Source of the DNA: an uncultured Bdellovibrionales bacterium | Lineage (GTDB): Bacteria; Patescibacteriota; Minisyncoccia; Moranbacterales; DUUL01 | Length of the DNA stretch: 64,000 nt | Direction of reading: 5' to 3' | Assembly: GCA_964505305.1 (NCBI GenBank) | Contig: CAZDHE010000001.1 | Coordinates: 27,776-91,775 of the forward strand | Program-made: the position numbers and the translations under genes | Part shown: positions 6,267 through 41,165 of the stretch, one piece after another | How the letters are laid out: each line of letters starts with the position of its first letter | Position numbering within the stretch: the stretch's first letter is position 1 | Notes under the pieces: generated by a model | Seen by the model: the letters and a program-made list of their open reading frames with translations, nothing else | What the model was told of the DNA's origin: nothing | Database searches by the model: none

Positions 6267-8633
6267 ATGACAAAACAAGAGAATAAAAAAAACAGAGAAA
6301 AAGATGACAAAGATAAAACAATTTCCAAGGAAGTGTCTCTGCTAAATATTGATGCTAAGAAAAGCATAACTTCGGTTTTACTTGTTATTGTGGCTTTGAT
6401 TTTTATTTTAAGCTTATTTGATGGTGCCGGAGTGGTGGGCAATTATGTAGATAAAGCTCTTAGAATGGCTTTTGGGTGGGGAAGATTCGCGCTTCCTTTT
6501 TTATTGATAATTTTGGGGGTGGTTTATTTTAGAAAATACCAAAGATACAGATATTATTTGACTACCGCCGGCGCTCTCATTTTTTTTATTTGTTTGTTGA
6601 TACTTTTCCATCGCGTAGCCGGTAATTTGGAAGAGATGAAAGAGGTGGCAAGATCCGGCGAAGGAGGGGGATTTATGGGATTTGCGCTTGCCTATCCTCT
6701 TTTTAAGTATTTCGGCGGATTGGCGGCGGTAATTTTATCAACCGGGTTTTTGTTGATAGGATTTATTTTAACTTTTAATTTTCCTTTAAATAAGTTTTTT
6801 GCCAGTGCTTGCCGTTATTATAAAACCTTTTTTGCCAAAGTAAAAGAAGCAGTTTCTCCGGGAAGAACTGAAGAGGCAGGAACTGAGGATGAATATGATA
6901 AAAAAAGAGAGAGCGCGGAAGAAGGGGCCAACATTAAAGAAGACTCTATAAAATTTGCCGATGAAGAAGATGGAGAGGATGATTATGATGAAGAAAAAAA
7001 GCTCGCAGCTGCAGCTAAAAAAGAGTATTCAAAAAGCGTTTTATCCGAAAACGGTCCGGATTTAAGTCAAAATAGTCTTTCCGAGTGGGATTGGGAATTA
7101 CCTTCGGTAAATCTCCTTGAAAAACCTAAAAAGCGCAAGGATCCGAAGAATTTAGACAAAAAAGCCGAGGCTATCGTGAGAACGCTGGAAGAATTTGGAA
7201 TAAAGGTTCACTACAAGGGTTATAACTTAGGTCCCTCAGTGGTTCAATATACTTTTGAGCCGGCTAGCGGAATCAAGCTTAGCCGCATTCTTTCTTACCA
7301 GGATGATTTGGCTTTAAGCTTAGCCTCTCCTTCTGTGAGAATAGAAGCTCCTATTGCGGGAAGATCTTTAATCGGGGTGGAAGTACCCCTGCCGTCTGAA
7401 AACTGCGCAGAAGTTAGAGTGAGAGATTCTATTGAGGATAGGGAGTTCCAAGAGCTTGATTCTAATTTGGGTATAATTTTAGGTGAAGATGTTTATGGAG
7501 AAAGAGTTTTCGCGGATATAAAAGACATGCCCCACCTAATGGTAGCCGGAGCTACCGGGATGGGGAAAAGCGTTTGCGTGAATACTATCTTGACATCCCT
7601 TTTATATCAAAATACGCCGGAGGATCTTAAGTTAGTCTTGATTGATCCTAAAAGAGTGGAATTGAATCTTTACAGCGGAATCCCGCATTTGATGGGTTCT
7701 GTTATTACTAATATGTCTGAAGTAGTGAATGCTTTAGGCTGGGCTATTAACGTGATGGATCAGAGGTATGAAATTATGGAAGAAGTTGGAGCTCGAGACT
7801 TGGAGGCTTATAATAATAAGTTCAAAAGAGGCAAAAAAAGGCAAGTTAAAGACCCGGAAACGGGAGAATATTATTACGAAGATCTTCAAAAGCTGCCTTG
7901 CGTAGTTATTATTATTGATGAGCTTAATGATTTAATGGCGGTTCATAAGAAAGAAGTGGAAGGAATGATTGTTCGTTTGGCTCAGAAATCCAGGGCTGTG
8001 GGTATACATCTTATCCTCTCTACCCAAAAGCCAAGCGCGGATGTTATTACCAGTCATATAAAAGCCAATATTCCGGCTAGAATTGCTTTAAAGGTTCTTT
8101 CTCAAGTTCATTCCAGGGTAATTTTGGATAGGGCGGGAGCTGAAAAGCTTTTAGGAAAGGGGGATATGCTTTTCGTGGGTAGTGACGGCAATTATATGAG
8201 GCGTATTCAAGGAGCTTTTGTTTCTACAGAAGAAACGGAAAAACTTGTTTCTTTTTGGAAAAAAAGCGCTAAAAAGAGAGGTTACATTAAAAGAGATAAT
8301 GAAATGGAGAAAAATTTTGAAAAAGAAAGAAAGAAGCCGGTTGAAAAATCCGGGGGTGTAGAGGGTGGTGAAGATCTGGATGATTTATTTGATGAAGTCA
8401 AAGAAACGGTTATCAGTACAGGAAAAGCTTCCACCTCTTTTATTCAATCCAAGTTTTCTATCGGGTATCAAAGGGCTAATAGAATTATGATGCAATTGGA
8501 GGAAAACGGAGTTGTGGGTCCTGCTCGAGGTTCCAAACCCAGAGAGATATTGCTTGGCGGAGTGGATGAAACAAGCTCGGGAAGCTATGAAGATCCGCGG
8601 AACGATGATGGCGAGGTGGGTGATAATTATTGA
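6267..8633 (+). CDS. ftsK: DNA translocase FtsK/SpoIIIE
   Basis: 788 aa. N-terminal TM segments, acidic linker, Walker A (GATGMGKSV), the DELNDLM motif and a C-terminal winged-helix gamma domain (SFIQSKFSIGYQRANRIMMQLEENGVVG). Confidence 0.9.
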   Translation: MTKQENKKNREKDDKDKTISKEVSLLNIDAKKSITSVLLVIVALIFILSLFDGAGVVGNYVDKALRMAFGWGRFALPFLLIILGVVYFRKYQRYRYYLTTAGALIFFICLLILFHRVAGNLEEMKEVARSGEGGGFMGFALAYPLFKYFGGLAAVILSTGFLLIGFILTFNFPLNKFFASACRYYKTFFAKVKEAVSPGRTEEAGTEDEYDKKRESAEEGANIKEDSIKFADEEDGEDDYDEEKKLAAAAKKEYSKSVLSENGPDLSQNSLSEWDWELPSVNLLEKPKKRKDPKNLDKKAEAIVRTLEEFGIKVHYKGYNLGPSVVQYTFEPASGIKLSRILSYQDDLALSLASPSVRIEAPIAGRSLIGVEVPLPSENCAEVRVRDSIEDREFQELDSNLGIILGEDVYGERVFADIKDMPHLMVAGATGMGKSVCVNTILTSLLYQNTPEDLKLVLIDPKRVELNLYSGIPHLMGSVITNMSEVVNALGWAINVMDQRYEIMEEVGARDLEAYNNKFKRGKKRQVKDPETGEYYYEDLQKLPCVVIIIDELNDLMAVHKKEVEGMIVRLAQKSRAVGIHLILSTQKPSADVITSHIKANIPARIALKVLSQVHSRVILDRAGAEKLLGKGDMLFVGSDGNYMRRIQGAFVSTEETEKLVSFWKKSAKKRGYIKRDNEMEKNFEKERKKPVEKSGGVEGGEDLDDLFDEVKETVISTGKASTSFIQSKFSIGYQRANRIMMQLEENGVVGPARGSKPREILLGGVDETSSGSYEDPRNDDGEVGDNY

Positions 8634-23529: not shown

Positions 23530-23602
23530 GCGCATAGCTCAGTTCCCGACAGGAAGAAGGCGGGCAGGGTCCGAGTCATCAACCCCGGTTTGTGTTATGC
23601 GT
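23530..23602 (+). other. tRNA-sized tRNA-Lys-derived element (acceptor-like helix, non-tRNA core)
   Basis: GCGCATAGCTCAGTT (23530-23544) is identical to nt 3-17 of the downstream tRNA-Lys(CUU). GCGCATA pairs with TATGCGT (23596-23602) over 7 bp including G.U. There is no D-stem 3' strand, anticodon arm or T arm. Confidence 0.4.
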
Positions 23603-23626: not shown

Positions 23627-23699
23627 GCGCGCATAGCTCAGTTGGTAGAGCAGCGGCCTCTTAAGCCGACGGTCGGGGGTTCAAATCCCTCTGCGCGTA
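23627..23699 (+). tRNA. tRNA-Lys (anticodon CTT)
   Basis: Manual cloverleaf. Acceptor GCGCGCA/TGCGCGT (G1.U72), D arm GCTC-AGTTGGTA-GAGC, anticodon stem GCGGC/GCCGA, loop CTCTTAA, T arm GGGGG-TTCAAAT-CCCTC, discriminator A. CCA is not encoded. Confidence 0.85.
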
Positions 23700-23891
23700 C
23701 CCAATAGCTTGAAGGGTGAAAGTTTATAAAGTTTGAAAGTTTTAAATCAGGTAGAGTTAGATGTTAAAATCAAGGAGTAATTTTGCTCAAATCAAAAATT
23801 GGCATTTTTACGAGTTTTGATTATTGATAGACAAAAAAAGGGACGGAATAATTTTATTTTAGCTTTTTAGTTGTTCATTGGTTATTAATAT

Positions 23892-23914
23892 GCCCCCGTA
23901 GCTTAATTGGATAG
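23892..23914 (+). pseudogene. 5' fragment of a tRNA-Arg-like gene (equivalent to nt 1-23)
   Basis: GCCCCCGTAGCTTAATTGGATAG is 20/23 identical to nt 1-23 of the tRNA-Arg at 23936. Confidence 0.7.
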
Positions 23915-24025
23915 CCCCGCCCCTATTTTGTACATGCGCCCGTAGCTCAATCGGATAGAGCGCCTGGCTTCGGACCAGGAGGTTGTGGGTTCGAGTCCTA
24001 CCGGGCGTACAAAATAGGGGCGGGG
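23915..24025. repeat. Perfect 19-bp inverted repeat bracketing tRNA-Arg
   Basis: CCCCGCCCCTATTTTGTAC (23915-23933) is the exact reverse complement of GTACAAAATAGGGGCGGGG (24007-24025). Confidence 0.95.
23936..24009 (+). tRNA. tRNA-Arg (anticodon TCG)
   Basis: Manual cloverleaf. Acceptor GCGCCCG/CGGGCGT (G1.U72), D arm GCTC-AATCGGATA-GAGC, anticodon stem CCTGG/CCAGG, loop CTTCGGA, variable AGGTT, T arm GTGGG-TTCGAGT-CCTAC, discriminator A. Confidence 0.85.
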
Positions 24026-24064
24026 TCGGACCAGGAGGTTCTGGGTTCGAGTCCTAGTAGGCAC
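24026..24064 (+). pseudogene. 3' fragment of a tRNA-Arg-like gene (anticodon through acceptor 3' strand)
   Basis: TCGGACCAGGAGGTTCTGGGTTCGAGTCCTAG is 30/32 identical to 23970-24001. The two differences are the paired T-stem positions (G-C to C-G). It is followed by TAGGCAC. Confidence 0.7.
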
Positions 24065-24268
24065 GCAATGCGCAGAAAAACTTAAAGATTTTCGTTTAAA
24101 ACTTTGTCTAAATTTTTGATTTGGTAATAAAATGAAATTCGGTGAATGCCGGACTTATATGCGAAGCAAGCTTGGCTACCCTTTAAATATTCTGGGAGAA
24201 TTACTCAAATTTAGTCTGATGCGCTCTCAAAGAAGTACCTTTTATTTAAGTTACACAAAGGAGGAGTT

Positions 24269-41004: not shown

Positions 41005-41165
41005 CCTGTATTGCTCTTCCGGCGGGATTATAAAGTATTTCAACTATTTTTCAAAATCTATTAAAGCCCGCCTTTCTATTTTTATCTGCAAAAAACTCTC
41101 GGGTTAATTTTTTCGAAAGATTCTTGTTTATGATTTTTGACTGAGTTTTTGAATTTAGAGTTTTG

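Follow-up and report, generated by a model that had tools for sequence, protein, structure and literature searches.

How does a complete transfer RNA (tRNA) gene come to lie inside another gene for the same isoacceptor, and does the gene that surrounds it still yield a product? This question is raised by a tRNA-Arg(UCG) locus in a 64-kb stretch of chromosomal DNA, hereafter the window, from a metagenome-assembled genome of Candidatus Moranbacteria (Patescibacteria); coordinates are window positions unless a contig is named. At this locus, an intact tRNA-Arg(UCG) gene stands between the two arms of a perfect inverted repeat, and this unit is itself bordered on both sides by pieces of tRNA-Arg genes. 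In this study, we describe the anatomy of the locus, its conservation in a second species, the mixed origin of its outer gene, and a clean insertion of the same kind between nucleotides (nt) 33 and 34 at a homologous locus. To account for these observations, we lean towards an explanation in which a tRNA-Arg cassette that is clamped by repeats and has no promoter entered a paralog at the anticodon loop, this host gene then having decayed.

A tRNA-Arg gene enclosed by other tRNA-Arg genes

The inner tRNA-Arg(UCG) gene is intact and occupies positions 23936-24009 of the forward strand. ARAGORN calls it as tRNA-Arg(tcg) at 23936-24010, and it passes the Rfam model RF00005 with 69.3 bits, where the gathering score is 29. 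Its acceptor stem begins with a G1-U72 pair, its CCA is not encoded, and within the window it is the only tRNA-Arg(UCG). Its 5′ leader is the left arm of the inverted repeat (CCCCGCCCCTATTTTGTAC, 23915-23933, forward strand) and its 3′ trailer is the right arm (GTACAAAATAGGGGCGGGG, 24007-24025, forward strand), which overlaps nt 71-73 of the tRNA. The repeat search gives two arms of 19 nt each, 100% complementary and with 73 nt between them. Both arms abut the outer pieces, meaning that the terminal inverted repeats extend to the boundaries of the insertion. The cassette delimited in this way is 109-111 nt long, of which some 73 nt are tRNA, and its outer ends are G+C-rich (CCCGCC...GGCGGG). 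The arm pair is the sole long G+C-rich inverted repeat of the window, where the 19-mer has no second match at up to three mismatches (0.03 expected). Among species-representative genomes, a collection without close relatives, the 19-mer has one chance match (in Mobiluncus), and it is absent from the metagenome collection, of which the close relatives are not part.

The pieces that border the cassette have different origins. The outer 5′ fragment (23892-23914, forward strand) represents nt 1-23, that is the acceptor 5′ strand and most of the D arm, of a gene that we refer to as gene A. It is identical to the inner tRNA at 20 of 23 positions; the 88% identity measured between 23890-23914 and 23934-23958 combines these positions with a shared preceding AT. 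The outer 3′ fragment (24026-24065, forward strand) represents nt 34-73, from anticodon to discriminator, of another gene, gene B. It is 97% identical to the inner copy in the repeat search (24026-24056 against 23970-24000), and both differences found in 32 nt fall at the paired T-stem positions 49 and 65. The two outer acceptor strands, GCCCCCG and TAGGCAC, form only 4/7 pairs. Gene A is defined by the acceptor strand GCCCCCG, the matching 3′ half being kept only in a related contig, L002, and gene B by the acceptor GTGCCTA/TAGGCAC. The outer 3′ fragment is identical to the 3′ part of the tRNA-Arg gene at 678-751 of a second related contig, L014. As read from the sequence, the outer gene of the window is a chimera with a 5′ part from paralog A and a 3′ part from paralog B, because its 3′ half and the downstream DNA match the intact tRNA-Arg of L014. 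Being chimeric and deprived of nt 24-33, it therefore yields no tRNA, and ARAGORN finds none in the joined outer pieces.

The initial annotation of this locus had described a complete tRNA-Arg in an inverted repeat that interrupts a second tRNA-Arg-like gene, and all of these elements are present. It had also proposed a formerly constrained tRNA as the origin of the outer 3′ piece, which agrees with the identity of this piece to the 3′ half of the tRNA-Arg still intact in L014, and that the outer copy may be a dead scar, which agrees with the joined outer pieces giving no tRNA. However, the outer pieces are not the halves of one paralog, as had been assumed, since the 5′ piece belongs to gene A and the 3′ piece to gene B. 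Altogether, the locus is predicted to hold one working gene, the inner tRNA-Arg(UCG), within the decayed chimeric remains of two paralogs.

L002 is a syntenic contig of a JGI metagenome that comes from a different species, its HolA being 77% identical to that of the window at the protein level and 79% at the DNA level. At 8007-8181, it has the same architecture and the same junctions as the window. The arms (38/38) and the inner tRNA (74/74) are identical in the two contigs. Given that four-fold degenerate sites in five shared genes are 61.7% identical, such an identity of the arms has a probability of about 1e-8. On the same basis, the conserved non-coding leader region that runs from tRNA-Lys(CUU) to the outer 5′ fragment (region Y, 23702-23891, forward strand), which is 90% identical to L002 (165/183 nt), gives P ~3e-18, and the outer 5′ piece (20/23) gives P ~0.008. 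This outer 5′ piece is orthologous to L002:8007-8029; it ends at nt 23 in both contigs, with 3/23 differences. The outer 3′ piece of L002 differs from that of the window: its acceptor strand, CGGGGGT, pairs 7/7 with the GCCCCTG of L002 and also 7/7 with the outer 5′ fragment of the window. The outer gene of L002 has an A-C mismatch in the T stem and lacks nt 24-33, and ARAGORN calls a tRNA from its outer pieces only when the 11 absent nt are added.

L014 is the closest relative of the window, as judged from ORF114, which lies on L014 itself and is 93% identical; a HolA homolog of 91% identity (P0001) comes from the same sequencing run (SRR21542053) and is found on a separate contig, L009. The tRNA-Arg(UCG) of L014 at 678-751 is plain and intact, with the acceptor GTGCCTA/TAGGCAC, and region Y is absent from this contig. 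In a three-way alignment, the window is L014-like through tRNA-Lys, L002-like from region Y to the inner tRNA, and L014-like again thereafter. This right part starts at TCGGACC... and comprises all of the outer 3′ fragment as well as the DNA downstream of it, the right boundary of the mosaic being exactly the 33/34 junction. The join of the chimera was most likely made by homologous recombination within the shared tRNA 3′ half. It could result from an allelic replacement for which an L002-like relative was the donor and the crossovers fell in the flank of tRNA-Lys and in the 3′ half of tRNA-Arg; it could also result from unequal crossing-over between tandem copies. The spacer upstream of tRNA-Arg in L014 (511-677) contains a decayed duplicate of the region downstream of that tRNA-Arg (local alignment z = 17), and tandem tRNA-Arg units therefore once existed in this lineage. 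A synteny search through HolA gave no relatives in the species-representative genomes, and in two more distant HolA relatives, L013 (54%) and L010 (49%), the tRNA locus is missing or the contig stops before it.

The same architecture is present on an unrelated Patescibacteria contig, L079, which is flanked by pilT-like and ykgJ genes, with tRNA-Lys(CUU) nearby. Here the outer tRNA-Arg(UCG) is complete. It is interrupted after ...CUUGGCU by CCTGCCCGCCATTGCC-TTA, and this left arm is followed by a complete inner tRNA-Arg(UCG), by ATGGCTATGGCAGGCGGG and then by TCGGACCAAG.... The insert, of 109 nt, lies at 689-797 of the contig, between nt 33 and 34 of the outer gene. Its removal in silico gives a perfect 72-nt tRNA-Arg(UCG) and brings back an anticodon loop of 7 nt, CUUCGGA, in which no base is duplicated; no target-site duplication is seen at the insertion. 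The arms abut nt 33 and nt 34, the repeat reaching exactly to both junctions. In its intron mode, ARAGORN calls an intron-containing tRNA with a 109-nt “intron”. A second assembly from ENA, L091, reproduces L079 across the structure with one difference in 306 aligned positions. With respect to the window, the initial annotation had seen about 11 nt of the outer gene as replaced by the insert. The loss itself is real but does not belong to the insertion; it is secondary, since the insertion in L079 is clean at 33/34.

The minimum-free-energy fold of L079 is an outer cloverleaf; its anticodon stem leads into the helix of the arms, on which the inner tRNA sits. A candidate promoter read by eye, TTGACT-17-TAAAAT, abuts the outer tRNA. 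The boundaries of the insert within 685-800 are ambiguous over three bases (CT|CCT on the left, GGG|TCG on the right). Every register from 33/34 to 36/37 gives an arginine anticodon (UCG, CCG, CCG and CCU), which has a chance of about 0.1 and is not significant alone; the register chosen by ARAGORN is CCU at 36/37.

The metagenome collection was scanned for TCGGACCARG at 12-42 nt after a T loop. This gave 69 stretches, the majority of them chance occurrences in high-G+C sequence, with the low-G+C L034 and L079 as the only relevant ones, and nothing nested was found in the viral contigs, phage genomes and plasmids scanned for the architecture. The left part is gone from L034, which keeps a tRNA-Arg in intact form, the right arm (AAATTTTGGCGGG) and a 3′ fragment whose T loop is mutated; from these features it looks like a later stage of decay. 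All three arm types, those of the window, L079 and L034, end in GGCGGG directly before TCGGA. The relatives of L079 reached through YkgJ homologs (L086 and L088) have plain tRNA-Arg genes, and the nested state is therefore sporadic. When inner tRNAs were tested as a separate clade by pairwise distances, the distances proved short and mixed.

Finally, the two arms can form a strong helix. The leader-trailer duplex of the window has an energy of -34.1 kcal/mol, with z = -5.9 against shuffles, and the nested tRNA-Arg genes reach about -33 kcal/mol with z of -4 to -6. Leader-trailer complementarity is weak for the plain tRNA-Arg of L014 and L088 (z = -2.2 and -2.8). A general habit of leader-trailer pairing was considered and rejected, as the other tRNAs of these genomes give z near 0. 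In the tRNA fold, the arms form a stem of 16 bp with a G+C-rich far end, and an internal loop of 5 x 1 nt precedes the acceptor stem; the RNase P site and the discriminator are therefore accessible. The stem encloses the mature RNA and is conserved: beyond the 38/38 identity with L002, arms of the window type and of the L079 type aligned from the junctions pair in 30/32 cells, with 7/16 pairs changed on both sides. The arms are probably a folding or processing stem made of leader and trailer, and by analogy this helix may be a substrate of RNase III.

Explanations for the nested arrangement

We infer the following on how the cassette was inserted, how it is transcribed and what the stem does. 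A cassette of about 110 nt without its own promoter would have entered an older tRNA-Arg(UCG) gene between its nt 33 and 34, disrupting this host. The host gene would then have decayed; in the window, its 5′ fragment would have lost nt 24-33 and its 3′ fragment would have been swapped for that of paralog B. Transcription would proceed from the promoter of the host gene, upstream of the outer 5′ fragment. It is probable from its sequence that region Y contains the promoter of the nested unit. Indeed, a candidate sigma-70-like promoter, TTGATA-17-AATAAT (23824-23852, forward strand; 10/12 matches in a consensus scan), is located some 40 nt upstream of the outer 5′ fragment, its counterpart in L002 being weaker, and it probably drives transcription through the whole nested unit. 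In the transcript, the arms would pair as a leader-trailer helix of 16-19 bp. This helix may set the inner tRNA apart as a folding or processing domain and stop it from pairing wrongly with the outer fragments, to which it is homologous. The mature inner tRNA would then be released by RNase P, a 3′ cleavage of RNase Z type and the addition of CCA.

Several points weigh against this explanation. We identified no insertion enzyme or mechanism. The Pfam scan covered 30 of the 40 open reading frames (ORFs) of at least 150 aa in the window and two shorter ORFs beside the tRNA locus; among these ORFs there is no integrase, transposase, reverse transcriptase or homing endonuclease, all matches being to housekeeping families. 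Neither a multicopy cassette nor an un-nested donor was seen, and the cassette is single-copy in the 64-kb window. The identity of region Y to L002 could be due either to constraint or to recent transfer. The unusual D arm seen in L079 is common to its inner and outer tRNAs, which are mutually closest; this fits a local duplication equally well. Moreover, the outer gene of L079 is free of decay and all its stem differences from the inner copy keep pairing, which fits a functional outer gene.

A more far-reaching version of the insertion, which we put forward tentatively and regard as rather doubtful, is that Patescibacteria contain a family of tiny promoter-less tRNA-Arg(UCG) cassettes, their inverted-repeat ends clamped by G+C, that insert precisely at 33/34 of the gene for the same tRNA. 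Such a cassette would be either a self-replacing mobile tRNA gene or a two-product arrangement with a tRNA as intron. As a mobile gene, it might be spread by a trans-acting enzyme, or by transformation and recombination with the conserved tRNA halves as homology arms. As an intron, it would be one that is itself another tRNA and is released by RNase P and RNase Z, and L079 with its intact outer gene would yield two products. A cassette that proved mobile would amount to a minimal selfish element, offsetting its own damage with a replacement copy of its target.

Could the arrangement have arisen without any discrete cassette, by ordinary local duplication and decay involving deletions in tandem tRNA-Arg genes and a small inverted duplication? 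That tandem copies tend to arise and decay at this locus is demonstrated by a pseudo-tRNA-Lys at 23530-23601, by the decayed copy that L002 has on the other side of its intact tRNA-Lys, and by the duplicated region of L014 described above; in addition, inner and outer copies within one genome are closely related. However, a tandem array does not have junctions of nt 33 with the left arm and of the right arm with nt 34. In two lineages with differing arm sequences, both junctions coincide exactly with the ends of the repeat, and the 3′ junction GGCGGG|TCGGA recurs in three lineages. It is improbable that two independent deletions would end at one position of the loop, and do so in several lineages; we consider this origin unlikely.

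It is also conceivable that the nested gene is functional as a whole, the insert being an intron or a split-tRNA linker and the outer halves, once RNase P and RNase Z have freed the inner tRNA, being joined, or held by the arms as a two-piece molecule, so that two tRNAs are made. L079 provides the main arguments for it. Its outer tRNA is complete and shows no decay, the differences between outer and inner copies in the acceptor, anticodon and T stems all keep pairing, the minimum-free-energy fold has the outer cloverleaf running into the arm helix, and ARAGORN accepts the whole as an intron-containing tRNA; the arms are moreover conserved. However, in the window the halves come from two genes, their acceptor strands pair 4/7 and nt 24-33 are missing, which leaves no tRNA possible. 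The outer pieces of L002 and L034 are visibly decaying, and a two-piece product would have its anticodon loop broken open. We know of no protein tRNA-splicing endonuclease in bacteria, and no EndA-like match was obtained among the scanned ORFs of the window, which represents 64 kb of genome. A hand reading revealed no bulge-helix-bulge at the L079 junctions, and no group I core is present. Altogether, we judge a functional nested gene to be very improbable. The initial annotation had compared the layout to archaeal split or intron-containing tRNA genes; this parallel does not hold, as the host is bacterial, the L079 junctions have no bulge-helix-bulge and the window halves cannot reconstitute a tRNA.

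Particular RNA structures were considered at these junctions and discarded. For a bulge-helix-bulge intron, with bulges at 33/34 of L079, the 4-bp central helix CUGC/CGGA allows one wobble pair only in a hand reading, and a kink-turn at the junction cannot be drawn on hand inspection. The Rfam family Intron_gpI has no match at E <=10 in the window region and at E <=1 in L079, L034 and L014, and no Rfam family was found at the locus besides the tRNAs themselves.

The displaced 3′ tRNA fragment, cut at the anticodon loop, is a classic signature of tyrosine integrases, and tRNA gene fragments left by integrated elements have been documented (PMC9897764, PMC3293823). The locus might accordingly be seen as the scar of an integrative element, either a prophage or an integrative and conjugative element, whose attachment site was the anticodon loop of tRNA-Arg, with the outer 3′ fragment as displaced attR and the arms as remnants of the ends of the element. 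Against this, the intact tRNA and the fragment are only 16 nt apart, a 5′ fragment is present upstream, which integration does not leave, and no integrase or element genes occur in the Pfam-scanned ORFs of the window. In L079, the insert has only 109 nt and the intact outer halves abut it. We give such a scar little chance. That recombination between the 19-bp arms flips the tRNA gene on and off at the DNA level, as a short segment flanked by a perfect inverted repeat might suggest, is hardly credible, with only 73 nt between the arms, one orientation in all assemblies seen (window, L002, L079 and L091), no invertase gene in the Pfam-scanned window ORFs, and an inversion of the sole tRNA-Arg(UCG) gene seen at the locus that would probably be harmful.

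Two more trivial origins were considered. An assembly artefact is ruled out by the same junctions in a different species and data set (L002) and by the homologous structure in L079 and L091. A multicopy miniature inverted-repeat transposable element (MITE) is made less likely by the uniqueness of the arm 19-mer in the window, its absence from the metagenome collection and the lack of other G+C-rich inverted repeats in the window.

Surroundings of the locus

The HolA protein of the window is carried by one public contig of 170 kb (NCBI GCA_048619615.1, JBMCHA010000001.1), and its homologs are annotated as Candidatus Moranbacteria or Patescibacteria. The G+C content of the window is about 36%, and its GC skew is steadily positive. 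The cumulative skew climbs monotonically over 1-64000 and the forward strand carries most genes, which places the window within a single replichore. The bacterial core genes include those for FtsK, FtsA, FtsZ, EF-G, EF-Tu, Fpg, a DUF3048 protein and HolA, and further genes encode a P-type ATPase, PolA, MurG, ribosomal protein L25, enolase, Fmt and PriA. The tRNA locus is positioned between holA and a small ORF, next to which lies the ATPase gene.

Upstream of the tRNA-Arg locus is tRNA-Lys(CUU) (23627-23699), which shares the G1-U72 wobble with the inner tRNA-Arg; the other three tRNAs of the window have G1-C72. The pseudo-tRNA found upstream of it, at 23530-23601, has a start (GCGCATAGCTCAGTT) that matches the tRNA-Lys start and an end (TTATGCGT) with which the acceptor strands pair 7/7, the middle being unrelated G+C-rich sequence. 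L014 shares this pseudo-tRNA, with an indel. In L002, the decayed tRNA-Lys copy (~7690-7815) follows the intact tRNA-Lys and has insertions in the anticodon and T regions. These sequences point to a tandem duplication, with decay of the copy on one side in one lineage and on the opposite side in the other. Several independent assemblies of the L002-type genome (among the sister contigs L003, L004, L005 and L007) break within a few hundred bases after tRNA-Lys, in or beside a direct repeat in which about 65 nt from the 3′ end of tRNA-Lys recur; evidently, short-read assemblies are fragmented by such repeated tRNA segments. The proximity of tRNA-Arg(UCG) and tRNA-Lys(CUU) is also observed in L086, L088, L090 and L079, at Patescibacteria loci that are otherwise non-syntenic, and in L086 the two genes are adjacent, 7 nt apart.

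Region Y also contains a mini-ORF of 14 codons that starts with TTG (MLKSKIGIFTSFDY) and is preceded by a Shine-Dalgarno-like motif, AAGGAG (23772-23827 for the whole). The counterpart of this mini-ORF in L002 has one replacement, one synonymous change and an earlier stop, and the mini-ORF may be spurious. A 13-nt repeat (23788-23800 and 24111-24123) is not nested consistently with the other flanking repeats and was taken as a chance event in A+T-rich DNA. Elsewhere in the window, the tRNA-Thr(CGU) gene (41005-41075, reverse strand) is preceded by a near-consensus promoter, TTGAAA-17-TATAAT, with a G+C-rich discriminator, CCCGCCGGAAGAG, directly after it. A string that resembles it, CCCGACAGGAAGAAGG, is found inside the pseudo-tRNA-Lys at 23545-23560, with TCCGCCGGAAGAAGG in L014. 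The CCCGCC core of these discriminator-like strings is also the outer end of the cassette arms.

Comparison with known systems

In the literature searched, the coverage of which is limited, we found no description of a tRNA nested in a tRNA gene in bacteria, and an event of the present kind, by which a tRNA-Arg cassette clamped by inverted repeats is inserted precisely in the anticodon loop of a tRNA-Arg gene, recurs in Patescibacteria and appears undescribed. To our knowledge, group I introns are the only interruptions of bacterial tRNA genes. Intron-interrupted tRNA genes and those split by mobile elements are central to debates on tRNA gene evolution, with cases that are mainly archaeal. 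If the stem is a processing signal, it would represent an unusual route of pre-tRNA maturation in a phylum with reduced genomes. On a practical level, fragments such as those described here can confuse tRNA counts in metagenome-assembled genomes.

The arm helix recalls the RNase III stems of 16S and 23S ribosomal RNA (rRNA), which are also long leader-trailer helices around a stable RNA. The analogy with these processing stems is plausible, but here the helix encloses a single tRNA. As a DNA element, the cassette resembles miniature inverted-repeat elements in being short and non-coding, in having terminal repeats that go exactly to its boundaries and in giving a long stem once transcribed. 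The Correia elements of Neisseria are of this kind, and their RNA hairpins are cleaved by RNase III. Unlike MITEs, the present cassette has no target-site duplication, is seen in a single copy, carries a tRNA as cargo and has as target the anticodon loop of the same tRNA.

In archaeal split and intron-containing tRNA genes, such as the tRNA halves of Nanoarchaeum equitans and the genes with bulge-helix-bulge introns, G+C-rich complementary segments likewise abut the halves at the anticodon loop. The present case differs by its bacterial host, by the absence of a bulge-helix-bulge, by its site at 33/34 instead of 37/38, by an intervening RNA that is a tRNA, and by the mismatched halves of the window. 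A comparison within the phylum is offered by the group I introns of Patescibacteria, which occupy tRNA anticodon loops, including position 33/34 in tRNA-Met and tRNA-Phe (PMC13011429). Phylum, position and precise insertion without target duplication are common to both. The L079 junctions (...GGCU|CCUG... and ...GGCGGG|UCGG) also have a U before the insert and a G as its last nucleotide, a likeness that is weak alone. However, the insert has only 109-111 nt, of which about 73 nt are tRNA, and no group I core is detected by Rfam. Known group I introns of tRNA genes measure about 200 nt or more, with 205 nt in tRNA-Ile of Azoarcus and 249 nt in tRNA-Leu of Anabaena.

Finally, the locus can be compared with disrupted tRNA genes whose partial copies lie beside an intact one. 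There too, the interruption is in or near the anticodon loop, and the fragments are scattered or re-paired by recombination. Here, by contrast, the insert has about 110 nt and encodes no protein; it is a complete tRNA of the same isoacceptor, held between inverted repeats and flanked by both a 5′ and a 3′ fragment.

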